In this document: piece by piece, positions 2,868-40,089 of the stretch
Numbering within the stretch: position 1 is the first letter of the stretch
How the letters are laid out: each line of letters starts with the position of its first letter
From: an uncultured Pseudomonadota bacterium
GTDB lineage: Bacteria; Pseudomonadota; Alphaproteobacteria; RF32; CAG-239
Length of the DNA: 44,289 nucleotides
Assembly: GCA_902797315.1 (NCBI GenBank)
Contig: CADBSM010000054.1
Span: 1-44,289, forward strand
Direction of reading: 5' to 3'
Program-made: the position numbers and the translations under genes
The notes under the pieces: model-generated
Database searches by the model: none
Told to the model about the DNA's origin: nothing
What the model saw: the letters and a program-made list of their open reading frames with translations, nothing else

Positions 2868-3434
2868 ATGAAAAAGATATTATTGCTAGCTGGTGTTGCC
2901 AGTATTGTCACACTCAATGCAAAAGCTGGTTATTGGACGGACATGTACAATGATATGAAACCTTATATTGGGGCAGATTACATTTATAGCAACATCAAAT
3001 TTGGCAATCCTGCACGAGGTTTAAGAGATAGCTATCACTCAGGTTCGGTTAATTTGGGTGCGCGTATGTACGGTTATTGGGGGCTAGAAGCCTTTTATCA
3101 ACAATCAGGTAAACGCGAAAAGAGACACCCTGACGGCAAACATTCTGCCGAATTTTTAGCTTATGGTGCAGATTGGTACGGCTATGCACCGATTATGTGC
3201 AGCCAATTTAATGTACTGGGCTCTCTTGGTTTAGCCAATTATCGTTTTAAGTTCGGCTATCCCGACATTGCTTCAAAAACTCAAAACAGAGTAGGTTATC
3301 GTGCCGGTATCGGTATGCAATATGACTTTAACGAGCACATAGCTGCCCGCGTTATGGGACGCTACACTTATCTTGGCATGAAACGTGTCAACAACTTAAA
3401 AGAAGTCACTGTCGGTTTAAGATATATGTTTTAA
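2868..3434 (+). CDS. Small outer-membrane beta-barrel protein (OmpA-N/OmpW/opacity-type barrel)
   Basis: 188 aa. It has a signal peptide (MKKILLLAGVASIVTLNAKA), alternating aromatic/Gly-rich strands and a terminal ...GLRYMF with C-terminal Phe. SD is AGGAGA 9 nt upstream. Confidence 0.6.
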   Translation: MKKILLLAGVASIVTLNAKAGYWTDMYNDMKPYIGADYIYSNIKFGNPARGLRDSYHSGSVNLGARMYGYWGLEAFYQQSGKREKRHPDGKHSAEFLAYGADWYGYAPIMCSQFNVLGSLGLANYRFKFGYPDIASKTQNRVGYRAGIGMQYDFNEHIAARVMGRYTYLGMKRVNNLKEVTVGLRYMF

Positions 3435-3548: not shown

Positions 3549-4046
3549 ATGAAACTTTACCATTATGTGCCCAAAAAAAATACTGTTTTTCAAGACGGCA
3601 TTTTATCAATTTCAAAAAATGATACCAATCTCAAAACTTATTTCAAACGCGCCAATTCTGACAATAAAGAAGATGTTATAGCGTGGCTTGAAAAAACATT
3701 TCCAGGACGCAGTAAATCAATTTCCTGTTTAACGGAACCTATCAAATGGCACTCAAATGACATCGTTTTAAAACAGATTGTTCAAAATTCAGAACTCTTT
3801 TCTTTTGAACTTAATGATTTAATCGAAGACGGATTAGTCGAAGCAATCTGGTGTAAAGCAGGCTCTCAGGCCAATGGCATCAACGAACAATTTTTTTTAA
3901 TAGATTCTGAACAAATTGACACCTCCCCTTTACCTTGGCACAAATGTAATAGTTCCAGAGGCTTGATTTATGGCGTCATACGCCATTATTTAATTGTCTT
4001 AAAAGATGGCCTTATTCCGCCTCAATACCTTTCAAAAGAAGATTAA
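3549..4046 (+). CDS. Hypothetical protein (165 aa), no family recognised
   Basis: ORF with AAGGA SD-like sequence upstream. It is convergent with the large orphan ORF, 16 nt apart. I could not see convincing catalytic motifs. Confidence 0.45.
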   Translation: MKLYHYVPKKNTVFQDGILSISKNDTNLKTYFKRANSDNKEDVIAWLEKTFPGRSKSISCLTEPIKWHSNDIVLKQIVQNSELFSFELNDLIEDGLVEAIWCKAGSQANGINEQFFLIDSEQIDTSPLPWHKCNSSRGLIYGVIRHYLIVLKDGLIPPQYLSKED

Positions 4047-4062
4047 CTCTCAAAAAAACACT

Positions 4063-6375
4063 CTATTCTTTAGAGTATTTATTCAAAACACCTCTCATCT
4101 TTGCGATCCAAACCTCTTGCTGTTTCTGATTATTTTGTTGGAAACAAGCATCTTCTTTTTCAAAAGCTTTGTTCGAAGGGAAAGGAATATTAATTGTCTC
4201 TCCTGTTTCATATTTCATTTGAGTATAATATTCACCATTTTCACTGGCAAAAGGAATTTTATATTCGTGATTTGGACCAAACTTTATAAGCTCCCTGCCG
4301 TTAACAATTTCGACAATCGGCTCTTGCCCCGGTTTGATAGAAATTCTTTTATCATAATGCATTAAATTTCCTTGCTGATCAACAAACTCAGCCAACCCAT
4401 TTTTTTCATCAAACAGAGGATAAAGTTTGCCTTCACACAAAATTTGGCACGTTTTATTTTGTTCATCTAGAACAAGATTTAAAGTTGCATCGGAAGCAAT
4501 TTGATAGGTGGTTTTATTTTTTTGTTTCTGATTTTGGTTCTTAATTCTACCATATTCATCAAAATCGACTTTTGATTGATTTTGGTTGCAATCATTAGAA
4601 TCCGAAAAAATCGGGTTTTGGAGAGCTCCTCTGCCACTTTTTTGCATAATTTTTAAGCTTAATGGAAGCTCTGTATTTCTACATAAAATTTCAACATTTT
4701 TATTTTGAATTTGTGTCTGCAGAAGTTCTTTATCTTGAATGTTTTCAACCTCGATTTTTGTGGAGGGAGAAACTGTCATAGCTGTTGTTTGTGCATAATC
4801 CGGCTTTGCTCTTTTATCAAAAACAATTTTTTTTGCTCCTGAAAAATCTATATTTTTAGGAAACTTAACATTATATTTTAATCTGAGTTCTTCTATGTGT
4901 TGAGGCAGTTTTACCATTTGAGCTTCGGACAAATCAACATCTTCAAGTATCATTTTTTTGCATTTCATATCATTTAAATCAAGAATCTTCATCGGGGGTA
5001 TTTTGACCTCAGATAATGTGAAACTTTCACATTCTTTTGGTGCCTTAATACCGACATATTCCATATTTGCCACACATACATTGCCTCCACAATTAGAAGC
5101 ATCAAGTGCATCAAAATCAGGCGACAATGTGCAATTGTACAGCATCATGTCACCTTTTAAATGCACATCACGAAATTTTTCAGATATAACAATTGAATGA
5201 AAAGATGCATCTTTAATTTCAAGAAAATTTGATGTTGGTTCGATTTGATCTGAACGGCACAACCCTCTCACATTCAAATCTTTATTATATACTTCTAAAG
5301 ATTGATTTTTTTTAAAAATACCAAGCCGCTTTTGAGACTCTTTCTTATACTCAAATGTTGGAAAATCTTTAATTTGTTTGTTGTTTCTTTCAATCAGATA
5401 ATCATTCAATTCACTCGTGTTTTTAGGTGTATGTAGCTTAGCAAATTTTTCAAAATCTATACCTTCTTTTTTAAAATAGCCTTTTGCATCAGCAATTTGA
5501 ACAAGTTTGTCATCTACACGCAAATAGATTGCCGACAACGGATTTCTGTCTTTAAGGACAAGAGTTTCATAGTCAGCTCTATAATCTTTTTGATAAGCTG
5601 TGTGTTTTTTTAAGGCCGATGCAAAAGGTCGCTCTGCACCGGCCATATCATAAAATTTTTGACCTTTTTGTTGTTTAAACTCATAAACAAAACCATATTG
5701 CATACCATCTATTGTTTGATATCGCAAACCTTTGCCTAAATTAGAAGCTTTTGAATATTTAACAGCTTCTGACAATCTGTTGGTTGCATAAACACAATCA
5801 CGAGAACGACGACTTGAGGCTATAGCATATGGTTTATCACCTAAAAGACCTCCTCTATAAATATATTTTTGAGAAGTAAATTCTTTATCACCTTCTTGAG
5901 AAATCACAACGTTAGGCATTTTATCTGCGGCATATTTTAAAAATTCAGATAAAATCTGATGAACATTTTTTTCTTCAGGATTATTTTTTTCAATATCAAT
6001 GATATAATCTGCATATCTTTGAGAGGTTGCCTCAATTAGGTTGTCCTTCACAACAGGCATAGCGCAGCTTGTCTCAAAACCATTTTCGCTTAAAATACGA
6101 ACCATATCTTTTGTAGCAAGCATAGCATCTTTTGCGGTTTTAAAAAAAGGCGTACGAATACCGGATCCTTCAACGACAAAACAACTCAAATCATCTTTAA
6201 TATTTTCATCATAAAAAGGCAGAGCATGAATCCCCCCTCTTCTAAGCAAATTGACCACATCTTCAACTGTTTGTTTTTTTAAGTGAAGCCCTAAAGAAAC
6301 TGAAAGTGGTTGTTTGATACTATCAAAATGGTCTGAAACCACACTTTTGTATATTGTGTTATAATTACCTGCCAT
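4063..6375 (-). CDS. Large orphan protein (~770 aa), effector-like, no family recognised
   Basis: Long uninterrupted ORF. GAGGAG lies 8 nt upstream of the ATG at 6375, whereas the track's TTG at 6381 is only 2 nt from the SD. It has N/Q/K-rich low-complexity segments and a central Cys/Leu-rich irregular repeat-like region. There is no signal peptide and no TM helix. Confidence 0.6.
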   Translation of the reverse strand: MAGNYNTIYKSVVSDHFDSIKQPLSVSLGLHLKKQTVEDVVNLLRRGGIHALPFYDENIKDDLSCFVVEGSGIRTPFFKTAKDAMLATKDMVRILSENGFETSCAMPVVKDNLIEATSQRYADYIIDIEKNNPEEKNVHQILSEFLKYAADKMPNVVISQEGDKEFTSQKYIYRGGLLGDKPYAIASSRRSRDCVYATNRLSEAVKYSKASNLGKGLRYQTIDGMQYGFVYEFKQQKGQKFYDMAGAERPFASALKKHTAYQKDYRADYETLVLKDRNPLSAIYLRVDDKLVQIADAKGYFKKEGIDFEKFAKLHTPKNTSELNDYLIERNNKQIKDFPTFEYKKESQKRLGIFKKNQSLEVYNKDLNVRGLCRSDQIEPTSNFLEIKDASFHSIVISEKFRDVHLKGDMMLYNCTLSPDFDALDASNCGGNVCVANMEYVGIKAPKECESFTLSEVKIPPMKILDLNDMKCKKMILEDVDLSEAQMVKLPQHIEELRLKYNVKFPKNIDFSGAKKIVFDKRAKPDYAQTTAMTVSPSTKIEVENIQDKELLQTQIQNKNVEILCRNTELPLSLKIMQKSGRGALQNPIFSDSNDCNQNQSKVDFDEYGRIKNQNQKQKNKTTYQIASDATLNLVLDEQNKTCQILCEGKLYPLFDEKNGLAEFVDQQGNLMHYDKRISIKPGQEPIVEIVNGRELIKFGPNHEYKIPFASENGEYYTQMKYETGETINIPFPSNKAFEKEDACFQQNNQKQQEVWIAKMRGVLNKYSKE

Positions 6376-6391
6376 TGTCAAAACTCCTCTA

Positions 6392-29597: not shown

Positions 29598-31091
29598 TTA
29601 AAGCAAAAAAAGAACAAACAAAAACACTAAAAGAAGACCCTGAATATAAACGGATTTAATTTTAGAATAAATTGTCTCAACAGTAGAATTTTGAGCAAGC
29701 TCCACATCAAATACGCCTTTTTGATTTAGTTCAAGGGAAGAAACGACTCTTCCCATTGGATCAATTAAAGCACTGACACCATTGCCCGCACCTCGAATAA
29801 TTGTTATTCCCTCTTCAACAGCTCTCATCTGGGCGCTGACAAGGTGCTGATAGGGACCCGAACTTTGACCATACCAAGCATCGTTGCTCAACACAAACAA
29901 AAACATCGGCTTATCATTTCTATTGACCACCTCGTCAGGAAAAATAATTTCATAACAGATTAAAACACCAAATTTAAATACACCGTTCAAATCAATATTT
30001 TTAAGTTTTTCACCGCTGCTTAAATCAGATAACACTCGTGCAATCGGGCTCATCCATTCTGGCAAAAATTGTGAAAACGGCAAATACTCTCCAAAAGGCA
30101 CTAAGTGATATTTATCATAAAAAGCCACCGTGTTTCCTTGATCATTGATGACAGACACAGAATTATAAGCTTTTTGCATTTCATCATCATATCTGATTAA
30201 ACCTGTCACTAAATATCCGTTTTTAGGAACAGCTTGCTTAATTTTATTTTGAATATAGTGTGATTTTCGCGGGTCAAAAGCAGAAGCCGTTTCACTCCAA
30301 ACCACAAACTGAACATTGTTCAGCCCTTTAGTTTGGCTCATTTTAATATAAGTGTCTAAATTTTTTTCAAGCTCATTTTCATCCCATTTCATACTCTGCT
30401 TAATACTTGGTTGCACAACTCGAATTTTAATATTTGAAGGCTGTGCTTGGTATGTTGAAATACGATAAAAACCAAAAGCCACAACAAAGGCGCTGACAAC
30501 ACAGAAAACAAATAAACCTGATTTTAAAAAGCCTTTTGCACAAGCATATATGGAGCCTGCTAAAATTAAAACAATCAAAGATAAAAGATATGTTCCACCA
30601 ACAGATGCAAGCTGTATAAAACGAGCATCAAAAGCTAAAACCGTACCAAGCATATTCCACGGAAAACCCGTGAGCAAAAAGCTTCTAAGGTATTCCATCA
30701 AAACAAAAACAATAGCAAATGCACCAATTTTAAAACAGATATTTTTTCGAACGAAATAATGCCAAAACACAAAAGGCAAAATCATAAATAACCCAAAAAA
30801 AGCACCAAGTGCTAACAGTGTTATCGGATACAAAAAACCAAAACGCGCAACATCAATTAATAAGGCATTCCCAATCCAATAAAATCCGGCTGAAAAAAAA
30901 CCAACACCATAAACATATCCCAACAATGCCGCTTTTTTGTATGAATTTATTGTATCAGCAATCAGCCATATACTCACAAAACAAATAAAAACCAAAGGCA
31001 CAACAAAAAAGGGAGCAAAGCCTAAACTTGCCAAAGCACCTAAAATAAATGCTGTAGTTTTTTGATGTTTAACGGACAGGATTAGTTCCAT
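29598..31091 (-). CDS. lnt: Apolipoprotein N-acyltransferase
   Basis: 497 aa with an N-terminal polytopic domain plus a CN-hydrolase domain (VVWSETA, LICYEIIFPD). Confidence 0.9.
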   Translation of the reverse strand: MELILSVKHQKTTAFILGALASLGFAPFFVVPLVFICFVSIWLIADTINSYKKAALLGYVYGVGFFSAGFYWIGNALLIDVARFGFLYPITLLALGAFFGLFMILPFVFWHYFVRKNICFKIGAFAIVFVLMEYLRSFLLTGFPWNMLGTVLAFDARFIQLASVGGTYLLSLIVLILAGSIYACAKGFLKSGLFVFCVVSAFVVAFGFYRISTYQAQPSNIKIRVVQPSIKQSMKWDENELEKNLDTYIKMSQTKGLNNVQFVVWSETASAFDPRKSHYIQNKIKQAVPKNGYLVTGLIRYDDEMQKAYNSVSVINDQGNTVAFYDKYHLVPFGEYLPFSQFLPEWMSPIARVLSDLSSGEKLKNIDLNGVFKFGVLICYEIIFPDEVVNRNDKPMFLFVLSNDAWYGQSSGPYQHLVSAQMRAVEEGITIIRGAGNGVSALIDPMGRVVSSLELNQKGVFDVELAQNSTVETIYSKIKSVYIQGLLLVFLFVLFLL

Positions 31092-37554: not shown

Positions 37555-37581
37555 TTTGAACTGTTTTAAGCTTTTACAAAA

Positions 37582-37610
37582 AACACCGCTTTCATGTGGT
37601 GTTTTTTTTA
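37582..37610 (+). terminator. Probable pnp terminator
   Basis: AACACC-N10-GGTGTT followed by T8. The stem is short, so confidence is moderate. Confidence 0.55.
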
Positions 37611-37674
37611 TGTTTAAAAACATTGTCACCACTTTAAGCCGTGTGATACGGGCGTCAATCTACAACCCGCCGCT

Positions 37675-37721
37675 CTTTGCAAAGCACATCCTTTCAAGAA
37701 GGGGGCTCATCTTTGCAAAGC
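37675..37721. repeat. Two copies of the palindrome-containing 11-mer CTTTGCAAAGC, 36 bp apart, at the left edge of the insert
   Basis: The copies are at 37675-37685 and 37711-37721. The core CTTTGCAAAG is self-complementary. Confidence 0.8.
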
Positions 37722-37744
37722 GCCTTTATTTGATGAAGTTGAAT

Positions 37745-37777
37745 AAACAAAAAAGCAGCTCCCTAAAGGGGGCTGCT
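37745..37777 (-). terminator. Terminator of the island operon
   Basis: A 10-bp stem AGCAGCTCCC / GGGGGCTGCT with loop TAAA. On the minus strand it is followed by TTTTTTGTTT, and it lies 27 nt past the barrel-gene stop. Confidence 0.65.
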
Positions 37778-37803
37778 TTCTATTTTGTTTCAGGAAAGAA
37801 ATC

Positions 37804-38559
37804 TTAACGAACCTTCCGGGCAATACCAAACTGGATACCCAGAGTGGCCTTGATCTGCCATTCGCGTTCCGTGTGGTTCAGGTGAACCGTCGGAATGTTC
37901 TCAGCGGTTGCGCGAAGAACAAGGCGCATGGACTTCATGCTCGGACGGAAAGAGTATTCTAACCCACCGCCAAAGGTGAGACCGCTTCCGGTGTAATACG
38001 CGTTGTAGATCTCGACCTGGCTCTCGGTTTCGACCTCGACAATCTTGCGATTGTCTTTTCCAAACAGGTAACCGGCAGAACCTACAACGTTGATGCGGCT
38101 GTTAACCCAGCGATTTTCCCAGATCATCACCTTGCCATTAAAGGTGGTGTAATAACTCAGGTACTTTTGGTCTGGGTTATTACTCTCCTTATCGTATTCA
38201 CGCATCAGAGCGCCTAAATTCAGCTCAGCGCTGAAGATGCGGACGGCGTGTCCATTGCTGGACCACAGAGCGCCGCCTTCGTAACCGAAGGTTACGCCCG
38301 CGGTGGGGCTCAGCTGCTTTCCGAAGAAAGCTGCGCCGCCGTTGATGCCGGCATAGAAGCCGTCGATCTTAACAGACCGAAGCTCGCCGGTAGAGAGCTG
38401 CCACTCCTCATGACGAGGAGCCTTATTGAGCTTCTGCTTCGTGGCCTCAGAGAGGTCCTGGAGACCGGCTTCGGTCAGGACCATATCAAAGGTCTGAGCG
38501 TTGGCGTTGAACATGGCTGCGATGATGGCGATGGTGACGATGATGATATTCTTTTTCAT
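37804..38559 (-). CDS. Small outer-membrane beta-barrel protein (island gene 2)
   Basis: 251 aa with signal peptide MKKNIIIVTIAIIAAMFNANA-Q and alternating Gly/aromatic strands (GVTFGYEGG, GSAGYLFG, GLTFGGGLEYSF, ATLGIQFG). It is GC-rich with no SD. Confidence 0.65.
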   Translation of the reverse strand: MKKNIIIVTIAIIAAMFNANAQTFDMVLTEAGLQDLSEATKQKLNKAPRHEEWQLSTGELRSVKIDGFYAGINGGAAFFGKQLSPTAGVTFGYEGGALWSSNGHAVRIFSAELNLGALMREYDKESNNPDQKYLSYYTTFNGKVMIWENRWVNSRINVVGSAGYLFGKDNRKIVEVETESQVEIYNAYYTGSGLTFGGGLEYSFRPSMKSMRLVLRATAENIPTVHLNHTEREWQIKATLGIQFGIARKVR

Positions 38560-38659
38560 GATTAGTCTTTTTTTGTGAGGGTTGAGCAGGATAATATTAG
38601 GCTCTTCCCTCTGATTATTAAATAAAATTGAGATAGGTTCAAAAACAATATAATATGAA

Positions 38660-38700
38660 CCTTTCGGCTGAAGGGTTTTTCAAGCCGAAAGGCTTGAAAA
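38660..38700 (-). promoter_or_regulatory. Mutually exclusive hairpins between the two island genes
   Basis: TTTTCAAGCC-GAAA-GGCTTGAAAA (38677-38700) shares 38684-38692 with an alternative pairing CCTTTCGGC (38660-38668) / GCCGAAAGG (38684-38692). Confidence 0.45.
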
Positions 38701-39894
38701 CTATTTCAGCGTCAGAACGACTTGACCGTTATAAGAAACGATCATATTCTCACCCTCGAAAGAGCAAGAATAACCGCTGACCACGGTGGAGAAATTGCCG
38801 TTCCGCCAATTCCAGTTTTCGAGGCTGGATTTGCGGATGGAACGGACACAAGTGTTTCCTTCGAAATACTTGATACCGTCTTCGGCATCCTGGGCGATGC
38901 AAGGCTTCCACGTTCCGTCCTGCAGGTAGTAGGCGCTGTTGCAGGATGAAAAATCACCTTCCCAAACATCACCATTTGCTACCATCTCGGCGGTCGGCTC
39001 TGCATTCATGGGAACAATCACCGTAATGGCGCTGTTCTCCTTGAAGAATACAAAAGCCTTGTGGGCCTCACGCTCACCTTTGCCATCAACGAGCTTGCCA
39101 TTTTCTGCCATCGCGGGGACGGCGGAAACAGCAAATCCCTTGAACGCGGGCTGGGCGGGCTTGGGCTGGACGGGGGCAATAGGAGCGATTTCCATCGTAC
39201 GGGTGTACGAAGTGGAAAGCTCAAACACCTCATCCTCAGCGTCTGCCTTCACAATTACCCCTTCGTAAACGACAGTCACGTCGTTCACCTCGGCGGTCTC
39301 GGAAGACAGAGCCTCGTTCTTGACGCTTTCAATAGACTTTACCTTGATGTCCTTGAACTCAGCGTTCAGGAGCTTCAGAGTGTCTGCCTTGGCGCTCTCA
39401 ACGAGAGTGCTTAAGTCAAGAACGTTGCCGTCCTTGAGGTCAGTGGTGTAGACGTCCTTAACGGAACGCTTGACCACATCACCTTCCTTCACCTCATTGG
39501 CATCATTAGCCTTTTTGGCGAAATTGAAGGTGGTTGCCTCAAGAGCCTCGCGGCTGTCAACTTTAACATTGACAGCATTGGCAAGGTTGGCTGCCAAAGT
39601 CAGGCGAACCACATTCGTGGTACGATTGACCTCTTCACCGTTTTTGATGGTGACGGTGGTGATGGTGTTATTCTGGTCAACAGTGTTGACCTCAACATCC
39701 TTCACCTCAAATTCCCCAACGTAAGAAACGGTGGCTTTGGTTTCAAGCACATCTTCAGATGCGGGCTGGGCGGGAGCGGACTTCTGATAAGTCTGAGCTT
39801 CCATTCCCCACATGCTGTCATCTTTGGTGCAGGAAACAAACATAGCGACGAGGCCAACCATCGCGATAACAAGGGCCGTAGTGTTCTTTTTCAT
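38701..39894 (-). CDS. Lipoprotein of unknown function with a Bacteroidota-style export signal (island gene 1)
   Basis: 397 aa. Signal peptide and lipobox are MKKNTTALVIAMVGLVAMFVS-C, followed by T-K-D-D. It continues with a beta-rich Val/Thr/Asn/Glu region, a Pro-rich linker (APIAPVQPKPAQPA) and a C-terminal domain with 4 Cys. The leader is A-rich with no SD. Confidence 0.65.
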   Translation of the reverse strand: MKKNTTALVIAMVGLVAMFVSCTKDDSMWGMEAQTYQKSAPAQPASEDVLETKATVSYVGEFEVKDVEVNTVDQNNTITTVTIKNGEEVNRTTNVVRLTLAANLANAVNVKVDSREALEATTFNFAKKANDANEVKEGDVVKRSVKDVYTTDLKDGNVLDLSTLVESAKADTLKLLNAEFKDIKVKSIESVKNEALSSETAEVNDVTVVYEGVIVKADAEDEVFELSTSYTRTMEIAPIAPVQPKPAQPAFKGFAVSAVPAMAENGKLVDGKGEREAHKAFVFFKENSAITVIVPMNAEPTAEMVANGDVWEGDFSSCNSAYYLQDGTWKPCIAQDAEDGIKYFEGNTCVRSIRKSSLENWNWRNGNFSTVVSGYSCSFEGENMIVSYNGQVVLTLK

Positions 39895-40089
39895 ATTTGA
39901 TTTATTTTTTGATTATCGATTTATTTAATTATCAAAGAACTCATGAAAAATCTTTCCTGACTTTTAATGATTACTATGATAATAGACAACACTTATATTT
40001 TTACATTCTCAATCTAACACATTTTTCAACAAAAAACAAGTGAAAAAAACACAAAAAATTATTTTTTTGTACAAAAAGTCAAAACAAGC

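Follow-up and report, generated by a model that had tools for sequence, protein, structure and literature searches.

Barrels of the PorP/SprF-like kind, the small outer-membrane partners found in type IX secretion (T9SS), are typically encoded beside their cargo. In Bacteroidota, the type-B CTD (C-terminal domain) of T9SS cargo binds such a cognate small outer-membrane barrel for anchorage at the cell surface (PMC9143113). Slam, the protein of type XI secretion (T11SS), combines a TPR N-terminal domain with a 14-stranded DUF560 barrel (PMC5449769), and the lipoprotein export signal (LES) of Bacteroidota, K-(D/E)2 or Q-A-(D/E)2 directly after the lipidated Cys, is sufficient for surface export (PMC5080379). 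The Slam-free routes by which proteobacterial lipoproteins reach the cell surface, and by which they are retained there, are still poorly understood. The subject of this analysis is a pair of adjacent genes, one for a lipoprotein and one for a small outer-membrane beta-barrel, in a 44,289-nt contig of an uncultured alphaproteobacterium (GenBank CADBSM010000054.1, assembly GCA_902797315.1; this whole stretch is referred to below as the window). The pair can be read, with moderate confidence, as a self-contained, mobile two-gene outer-membrane module specific to uncultured gut-associated Alphaproteobacteria, in which a surface-displayed binding lipoprotein is joined by a dedicated barrel partner.

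The original prediction, made from the sequence of positions 37745-39894, had described a lipoprotein gene followed 141 nt downstream by a gene for a 251-amino-acid barrel with a signal peptide, and both open reading frames (ORFs) are as described, on the minus strand. The parts of the module that are needed for the argument are as follows.

39894..38701, minus strand: lipoprotein gene, ORF of 397 amino acids
39184-39744, minus strand: stalk module of the lipoprotein (residues 51-237), beta-rich, ~185 amino acids, one copy in the window
38704-39183, minus strand: conserved C-terminal domain of the lipoprotein, ~165 amino acids
38560-38700, minus strand: spacer between the lipoprotein and barrel genes, 141 nt
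38559..37804, minus strand: barrel gene, ORF of 251 amino acids
37742..37789, strand "." (bidirectional): closing terminator, inverted repeat I1, an intrinsic-terminator hairpin

A check of gene neighborhoods, which the original prediction had proposed, found the two genes linked well beyond the window. The barrel gene lies directly downstream of the lipoprotein gene in 10 distinct loci (the window; L001, with its sister contigs L021 and L022; L006/7; the L002 group; L009; L010; L011; L012; L013/14; and L015/16), with spacers of 57 to 215 nt and protein identities that go down to 27 to 30%; one solo barrel is considered below. The paired loci are found in five unrelated neighborhoods (fabD-fabG/mraZ, S66 peptidase/Fe-hydrogenase, trcR/patatin, hemN/NTP-transferase, and pnp/mlaC), and the independent sister contigs L001, L021, and L022 carry the same lipoprotein-spacer-barrel order. 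Five divergent barrels encoded on long contigs are each preceded by a protein of 226 to 801 amino acids that contains no Pfam domain, and all five of these upstream proteins have a lipobox and a C-terminal stretch of ~165 amino acids of the window type. Loci with more similar C-terminal domains also have more similar barrels (r = 0.87 for the pairwise identities), a correlation that is by itself no proof that the two proteins interact physically. For either gene, the window, L001, and L006 group in a single deep clade, and the two genes are therefore inherited and transferred as a unit.

The genes around the module (mraZ-rsmH-PBP, ftsK, MlaC, TrcR, and BamD-like genes) fit diderm Alphaproteobacteria, as do those for BamB, Lnt, AcrB, and DUF2659 in the window; it is from such gene content and from its relatives that the analysis placed the window's genome. 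Among the species representatives in GTDB, the lipoprotein is present in only two, and one carrier locus belongs to a GTDB representative named “uncultured Alphaproteobacteria bacterium,” a metagenome-assembled genome (MAG) from the human gut. Scans of JGI metagenomes did not find the window-type lipoprotein and found the barrel in two short contigs only, while a look-up of pnp gave no strains on record that lack the insert. One of the paired loci, L009 (CAVBCV010000018.1), is titled “Lachnospiraceae bacterium”; it has a diderm gene set and the same module as the alphaproteobacterial MAG contig L008, to which it is near-identical, and the title is probably a binning or labeling error.

The N-terminus of the window lipoprotein, MKKNTTALVIAMVGLVAMFVS followed by C22, has a KK pair in the n-region, a hydrophobic core, and the lipobox F-V-S-C22. 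The protein has the features of a bacterial lipoprotein (positively charged n-region, hydrophobic core, and a lipobox of the type [LVI..][ASTV][GAS]C; a substrate of Lgt, LspA, and Lnt), and a lipobox is found in most full-length members of the family. Its architecture is modular: the signal peptide with the lipobox and the sequence C-T-K-D-D are followed by the single stalk module, a Pro-rich linker, and the C-terminal domain, and other family members, which range from 109 to 1406 amino acids, contain from zero to three copies of the stalk module. The sequence after the lipidated Cys recurs in the family as the motif C-x-K-D/E-S-x-F/Y-L-G, in place of which the window protein has C-T-K-D-D, and the C-terminal domain is marked by the motif W-x-W-R-x-G-N-x-S-T-x-V-x-G-Y...Y-N-G.

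The original prediction had called this protein an orphan, which in the strict sense it is not. It belongs to a small family of only 69 clusters, identified by an exhaustive HMMER profile search of 1.84 billion representative proteins; word-indexed searches gave one protein that is 49% identical over the C-terminal half and a family of ~610-amino-acid proteins at 30% identity. Homologs at E values of 1e-16 to 1e-39 argue against a chance ORF. The family is restricted and unannotated: the window protein matches no family in Pfam or NCBIfam, even the family members of 1000 to 1400 amino acids gave no Pfam domain, a sequence search of the PDB gave no relative of the lipoprotein with a solved structure, and no source names any member of either the lipoprotein or the barrel family. 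A lead toward legume lectins and ConA-like proteins, which came from an hmmsearch of the PDB with the C-terminal domain (E values of 0.2 to 2, the best at 0.2 over ~45 residues), was rejected after hhalign gave a probability of 1.2% against an approximate pea-lectin sequence. For the window proteins and many of their relatives, the remaining hits in Pfam, NCBIfam, PHROGs, and PADLOC (BamJ at E = 0.076; DUF7122) were sub-threshold noise and were likewise discarded; among the PADLOC models of anti-phage defense, the best match (PDC-M24A; E = 0.01, 14 bits) was not meaningful. In several proteins of ~170 to 190 amino acids (P0170, P0175, P0194, P0196, P0210, P0213, and the product of L018 465-1031), the C-terminal domain makes up the whole protein. 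These lack a lipobox and share a start motif of the “FWSKKLL” type; the one contig retrieved for them, at 1.3 kb, is too short to show neighboring genes, and they may be phage or stand-alone forms.

The barrel protein has a Sec signal peptide (residues 1-21) that ends in ANA ahead of Q, then an N-terminal extension of ~40 amino acids with a helix (residues 30-46), and then a small beta-barrel (residues 65-250). The extension is conserved, and its P48 is invariant. An AlphaFold2 (AF2) model of the protein, built from an alignment of 35 sequences, has a predicted local distance difference test score (pLDDT) of 74. DSSP divides this model into 10 strand segments, which can be interpreted as 8 long strands, with kinks in two that give a protruding hairpin; a 10-stranded barrel stays within what the model strictly allows. 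In Foldseek searches of the PDB, the top matches were Ail, OmpA-TM, OprF-N, OmpX, and NspA (E values of 1e-5 to 5e-4; target TM-scores of 0.44 to 0.66), every one of them an 8-stranded barrel, and in the viral library the matches were small phage-encoded barrels of outer-membrane proteins (OMPs). The modeled fold looks like an 8-stranded barrel of the Ail/OmpX/OmpA-N type with a periplasmic N-terminal helix. At 251 amino acids and about 8 strands, the protein is far too small for a TonB-dependent transporter, as the original prediction had stated; it is also too small as a translocon and cannot conduct the folded lipoprotein.

By sequence, the barrel forms a family of its own and is not a generic barrel that happens to lie beside unrelated genes. 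A profile made from six sequences, that of the window plus five of related loci, retrieved 103 homologs, the weakest at an E value of about 1e-30, which here, too, speaks against a chance ORF, and word-indexed searches gave only one close homolog (81%). The window barrel stays under every Pfam and NCBIfam threshold, including the Pfam gathering thresholds of OMP_b-brl, OmpA_membrane, and Ail_Lom, and comes closest to DUF6850, with 21.5 bits versus a cutoff of 27. PF13505 (OMP_b-brl) is matched by 1 of 35 family members, at an E value of 0.003, and a precomputed PF13505 match is on record for 9 of the 103 homologs; a sequence relative in the PDB was not found. Of the outcome that the original prediction had named as a refutation, a generic OmpA-N or porin-family barrel next to unrelated genes, only the OmpA-N-type fold is borne out, as against a sub-Pfam family that codiverges with the lipoprotein domain (r = 0.87). 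Long variants of the barrel (encoded by L019 715-1851 and by L020, and the proteins P0137 and P0142) have 359 to 378 amino acids, with an insertion of ~110 amino acids after the N-terminal region; when the insertions of L019, P0137, and P0142 were compared with the lipoprotein C-terminal domain, nothing significant came up.

Not all members of the family are lipoproteins, and the C-terminal domain is shared with a phage. The 389-amino-acid protein P0169 (L017 8001-9170) has the N-terminus of a tail protein or tail fiber (PHROGs matches at E values of 6e-7 and 1e-5), and its C-terminal 165 amino acids are 46 to 48% identical to lipoprotein C-terminal domains; the window's own domain is less close to those same proteins. 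The 40-kb contig L017 is of phage origin, with a gene for a SU10-type major capsid protein, Gp80 and Mtd_N neighbors, and further head and virion-structural matches. The tips of tail fibers act outside cells, so P0169 provides the strongest argument at hand for reading the domain as a binding module that works extracellularly.

The module differs sharply from its surroundings in composition, which bears out the earlier description of it as an insert. Its GC content is ~0.49, versus ~0.35 in the flanks, and the GC content at third codon positions (GC3) is 0.62 and 0.67 in the two module genes, versus a host mean of 0.297 (standard deviation, 0.039; maximum, 0.37), calculated from the other 35 ORFs in the window. 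In related loci, the GC3 of the module matches that of its neighbors or exceeds it moderately; the genome of L013 has the same GC3 as the window host (0.30), and its module genes have values of 0.32 and 0.38. The values of the window module resemble those of L001 (0.64) and L006 (0.71) and are unlike those of the host, and therefore the whole unit, promoter included, was imported from a GC-richer lineage. Judged from composition, the window module is foreign and was evidently acquired by horizontal transfer; the missing AGGA-type ribosome-binding sites of both module genes (see below) are in line with this. The insertion site was searched for a tRNA, an integrase, and flanking direct repeats, and none of these was found.

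The barrel gene has, in addition, a history of its own. In a comparison of the window with the three sister contigs L001, L021, and L022, which come from other samples, DNA identity was calculated per 100 nt. The lipoprotein gene is 96 to 100% identical among them (92 to 100% when most of the spacer is included). From ~38630 to 37925, a segment that covers the barrel 5' hairpin and ~80% of the ORF, identity goes down to 69 to 86%, and in the last ~150 nt of the barrel gene it is back at 98%. Synonymous divergence (dS) in this segment is 0.94, versus 0.03 to 0.05 on either side, and the ratio of nonsynonymous to synonymous divergence (dN/dS) is 0.17; the amino acid differences are concentrated in the signal peptide and in residues 70-84 and 118-132. 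These profiles indicate that the segment is a divergent allele brought in by recombination, as opposed to the product of a burst of mutation. Allele replacement of this kind is typical of surface antigens and phage receptors, and such swapping at the population level is what one would expect if the barrel were a phage receptor or an immune target.

How such a module would work can be outlined as follows. The lipoprotein would be a surface-displayed binding protein or adhesin, built from a lipid anchor, a short acidic C-x-K-D/E tether, a variable number of stalk modules, and a Pro-rich linker, with the C-terminal domain for its binding head. The barrel would be its obligate membrane partner, either a docking or anchoring platform or a helper in surface deployment. 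A promoter of its own, a conserved leader, and the barrel 5' hairpin (described below) would suggest strong and separately tuned expression of both genes. The variable number of stalks and the replacement of barrel alleles are typical of exposed surface proteins, and the compactness of the module (two genes and their control elements), together with its movement between genomes as a unit, should make the proposal testable by transplant into a model diderm. It would be the first candidate for a major surface structure in uncultured gut Alphaproteobacteria. A more specific version, in which the domain docks on the external face of the barrel and phages have pirated it in order to use the barrel as a receptor, thereby driving allele swapping, has to be considered rather unlikely; if true, it would represent a new route of lipoprotein surface deployment, independent both of Slam and of the Bacteroidota systems, and a plain example of a phage that mimics a ligand.

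Several observations weigh against surface display with a dedicated barrel. The barrel of L019, the sole unpaired one, is encoded directly after secA with no lipoprotein gene next to it. C-terminal domains that are 97% identical occur alongside barrels that are only 81 to 85% identical, and therefore any contact between the two must tolerate or avoid the variable positions of the barrel. The AF2 model of the lipoprotein, from an alignment of 17 sequences, has a pLDDT of 36 and is too poor for its fold to be judged. The phage link consists of one contig, and no further phage copies of the domain were found among the viral contigs of IMG/VR or the phages of GenBank. The window sequence C22-T-K-D-D fits the K-(D/E)2 form of the LES, and C-x-K-D/E occurs throughout the family, a likeness that is a lead only: the LES has been validated in Bacteroidota only, the hosts here are not Bacteroidota, and most family members have one acidic residue after the Lys, followed by S-x-F/Y-L-G.

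An unlikely alternative is that the pair faces the periplasm, with the lipoprotein contacting the N-terminal helix of the barrel in a structural or homeostatic complex, such as a tether or spacer between the outer membrane and the cell wall. Most proteobacterial lipoproteins do face the periplasm; the ~40-amino-acid periplasmic extension of the barrel, with its predicted helix and invariant P48, is conserved; a folded protein cannot pass through an 8-stranded barrel; and no flippase resembling Slam or the Bacteroidota machinery is evident in the window. Such an arrangement is difficult to reconcile with the reuse of the C-terminal domain at the distal end of a phage tail fiber, which acts outside cells, or with a varying number of stalk repeats and the replacement of barrel alleles, and the proteins contain neither an OmpA_C or other peptidoglycan-binding domain nor an Ala-Asp N-terminus of the Brucella type.

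The same tail fiber and the same barrel alleles suggest another possibility, somewhat more doubtful, namely, that the two proteins are a receptor-ligand pair shaped by an arms race with phages: the barrel loops would dock the C-terminal domain, phages would have captured that domain, the lipoprotein would mask the receptor, and alleles would be exchanged for escape. Consistent with this, the tail-fiber domain is nested within the diversity of the lipoprotein domains at 46 to 48% identity, it is the barrel segment and not the lipoprotein gene that has been replaced among near-identical strains, and the genetic linkage of the two genes is strict. The phage side of the argument is a single example, though, a glycan is equally possible as the ligand of the C-terminal domain, and PADLOC gave no meaningful match.

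The proposal of a surface-displayed lipoprotein with its own barrel partner includes the expression of both genes, and the noncoding sequence around them carries several conserved elements.

40011..40040, minus strand: promoter-like site of the lipoprotein gene, with the -35 element CTTGTT and the extended -10 element TGTGTTAGATT
39943..40021, minus strand: conserved leader core, from an nhmmer profile (E = 4e-12 in the window)
39945-39957, minus strand: near-invariant palindrome box (T)GAAAAGATTTTTC(A), TGAAAAGATTTTTCA; the window version is GGAAAGATTTTTC
38677..38700, minus strand: hairpin right after the lipoprotein stop codon, from RNAfold, TTTTCAAGCC-TTTC-GGCTTGAAAA
38614..38642, minus strand: promoter-like site in the spacer, a consensus match only (TTGAAC, 17 nt, AATAAT)
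38577..38611, minus strand: barrel 5' hairpin, GAGGG-AA-GAGC, loop CTAATATTATCCT, GCTC-AA-CCCTC, 17 nt before the barrel ATG

The unit was originally taken to span 37745-39894; the conserved promoter and leader extend it to about 40040. A promoter-like pattern of CTTG, ~17 nt, and TGnTAnATT can be aligned upstream of the lipoprotein gene in all eight loci with enough upstream sequence. The leader core of ~80 nt, found also at L002 7848-7929, L010 3227-3307, and L013 5125-5211, among others, is more conserved than the coding sequence, and its profile gives one match per locus, always upstream of the lipoprotein gene; the palindromic 13-mer likewise has a single occurrence per locus in 214 kb of sequence. 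The leader does not appear to encode a leader peptide, since the shared block lies in different frames of the upstream ATGs among the loci. RNAalifold recovered the invariant 6-bp palindrome only, with no covariation, and therefore a sequence-specific binding site is likelier than a structured RNA; the element is a candidate operator or protein-binding site. Searches of Rfam 15 gave no gathering-level match in the window and chance-level matches only in the module and six related loci. Many host genes have AGGA or AAGGA ribosome-binding sites (all window ORFs were scanned over the 20 nt upstream), whereas both module genes, in the window and in all related loci, have A-rich leaders that lack a Shine-Dalgarno sequence, with no AGGA-type site.

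The spacer is no less structured. The hairpin right after the lipoprotein stop codon could be terminator-like or attenuator-like; of the nine other loci that were folded, at least six (L001, L002, L009, L011, L012, and L015) have an analogous one, while it is less clear in L006 and L010, and in L013, where the spacer is 57 nt, there is none separate from the barrel 5' hairpin. The promoter-like site in the spacer stops just upstream of the barrel 5' hairpin, and a TAATAA(C) box resembling a -10 element occupies the corresponding place in L002, L009, and L013. The barrel 5' hairpin itself is present in all 10 paired loci, with its 3' end 17 to 24 nt before the start codon. Its stems vary among the loci (for example, GAGGGAAGAGC, GGGGGACCGGA, and GGGAGCGGC), and in the loop the motif T/AAAAAATTATC is near-invariant in five loci, with a close variant in three more, including the window; nowhere else in each locus does this motif occur with flanking inverted repeats. 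The hairpin was judged from per-sequence folds, as loops of unequal length made for a poor alifold of the MAFFT alignment. Its role may be to stabilize the 5' terminus of a separate barrel transcript. In view of the spacer hairpins and the -10-like box, the two genes are perhaps separately initiated or differentially attenuated; with a hairpin of the terminator type, a promoter-like site, and the conserved barrel 5' hairpin all standing between them, the original suggestion of a single operon is not established. The roles put forward here for the promoter, leader, and hairpin elements are those that their sequences suggest; two of these cis-elements, the palindrome of the leader and the hairpin 5' of the barrel gene, have no annotation and could be subjects of study in themselves.

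At the other end of the module, the strong terminator of the original prediction is there as a hairpin with T-runs, which are found on both strands; its stem (37752-37779) was described as 10 bp of GC pairs and consists of 12 pairs, of which 7 are G-C, interrupted by a single internal mismatch. In the main clade (L002 10728-10830, L010 6664-6770, L011, L012, L013, and L015), a conserved hairpin comes after the stop codon of the barrel gene, then a AATTATTA(TT) motif, and then a canonical AAACGGCGC...GCGCCGTTTTT terminator; the window clade is without this hairpin and the AATTATTA(TT) motif. In the window, ~145 nt (37608-37751) separate the pnp terminator (37578-37607) from that of the module. 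This stretch, probably a part of the imported DNA, holds TCTTTGCAAAGC twice (37674-37685 and 37710-37721), making a 13-nt inverted repeat, and its folding energy is not better than that of shuffled controls (z = -1.0).

Such signals inside the spacer, a composition sharply unlike that of the flanks, and the origin of the contig in a metagenome assembly could also be taken to mean that there is no functional unit at all, only unrelated neighbors or a chimeric assembly. This is very improbable: the two genes are paired again and again, in 10 loci and five contexts and at identities as low as 27%, the three independent sister contigs keep the arrangement, host-like sequence lies on both sides of the insert within one contig, and the AT-rich conserved leader belongs to the insert. 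Coincidence and assembly chimerism are largely refuted by the recurrence of the pair.

The host-like flanks carry housekeeping genes, with truB, rpsO, and pnp upstream of the module and a MlaC-like gene, pgk, and gap downstream; the MlaC-like protein shares 41% identity with its L002 counterpart. Elsewhere in the window are genes for BamB, AcrB, and a DUF2659 protein and, at 29598-31091, a gene for Lnt. A 188-amino-acid OMP_b-brl barrel (2868-3434, plus strand) and a 165-amino-acid ORF with no Pfam match (3549-4046, plus strand) are syntenic with L013 3162-4228. The native lipoprotein-barrel module of L013 lies ~1 kb beyond that segment, at a place where the window has a 772-amino-acid ORF with no Pfam match (4063-6381, minus strand).

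The least credible of the alternatives, that the pair is a member of a known system (Slam/T11SS-TbpB, SusCD, LptDE, or T9SS type-B CTD/PorP), can draw on an organizational likeness, a dedicated barrel beside a lipoprotein or cargo whose C-terminal domain is conserved (PMC5449769, PMC9143113), and on the resemblance of the motif after the lipidated Cys to the LES (PMC5080379), but it founders on a barrel of ~8 strands, on sequence searches that gave no relative with a solved structure, and on the lack of any match at E ≤ 1 to DUF560/TPR, TonB-dependent receptor, SusD, LptD/E, PorP/SprF, or T9SS CTD models. The original prediction had likewise seen no motifs of the TonB-dependent, SusCD, or Slam families in either protein, and the Pfam and NCBIfam searches agree with it.

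Set beside each of these systems, the module is similar in outline and different in its components. The TonB-dependent SusCD complexes combine a 22-stranded barrel and plug with a SusD-like TPR lipoprotein; models of these proteins find no match here, and the window barrel has 251 amino acids. In RcsF-OmpA/OmpC/OmpF and LptE-LptD, too, a lipoprotein is functionally tied to a barrel, but those barrels are housekeeping proteins, of 16 to 26 strands or OmpA, their genes are not adjacent in this way, and there is no sequence relationship. RcsF has a conserved N-terminal tether that is used for threading. Slam with TbpB, LbpB, fHbp, or HpuA is closer in gene order, as a gene for a surface lipoprotein adjoins that for a dedicated outer-membrane barrel. 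However, the window barrel, with ~8 strands and a short N-terminal helix, gives no DUF560 or TPR match at E ≤ 1, and its lipoprotein matches none of the TbpB or fHbp models in Pfam and NCBIfam that represent the Slam-dependent lipoproteins, which have a soluble eight-stranded beta-barrel at the C-terminus, a fold for or against which the lipoprotein model (pLDDT 36) is too poor to speak.

The best functional analogy for a barrel that serves as a docking partner is offered by T9SS type-B cargo, which likewise consists of large, variable surface proteins with a conserved C-terminal domain. The analogy does not extend to homology: the window cargo is a lipoprotein, the hosts are Alphaproteobacteria, and neither protein has a CTD or PorP/SprF match in Pfam or NCBIfam at E ≤ 1. 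Small 8-stranded barrels are often phage receptors and antigens, and, by Foldseek, the window barrel has its fold in common with OmpX/Ail/Lom, the OmpA N-domain, NspA, and OMP_b-brl, the last of which includes the alphaproteobacterial Omp25/Omp31. What sets it apart from these families are its ~40-amino-acid N-terminal extension and its obligate lipoprotein neighbor, the latter being absent from those families. The unnamed families and their conserved pairing support the view, already taken in the original prediction, that the module is an undescribed lipoprotein-barrel pair, a variation on the known theme of a surface lipoprotein plus a dedicated outer-membrane barrel.

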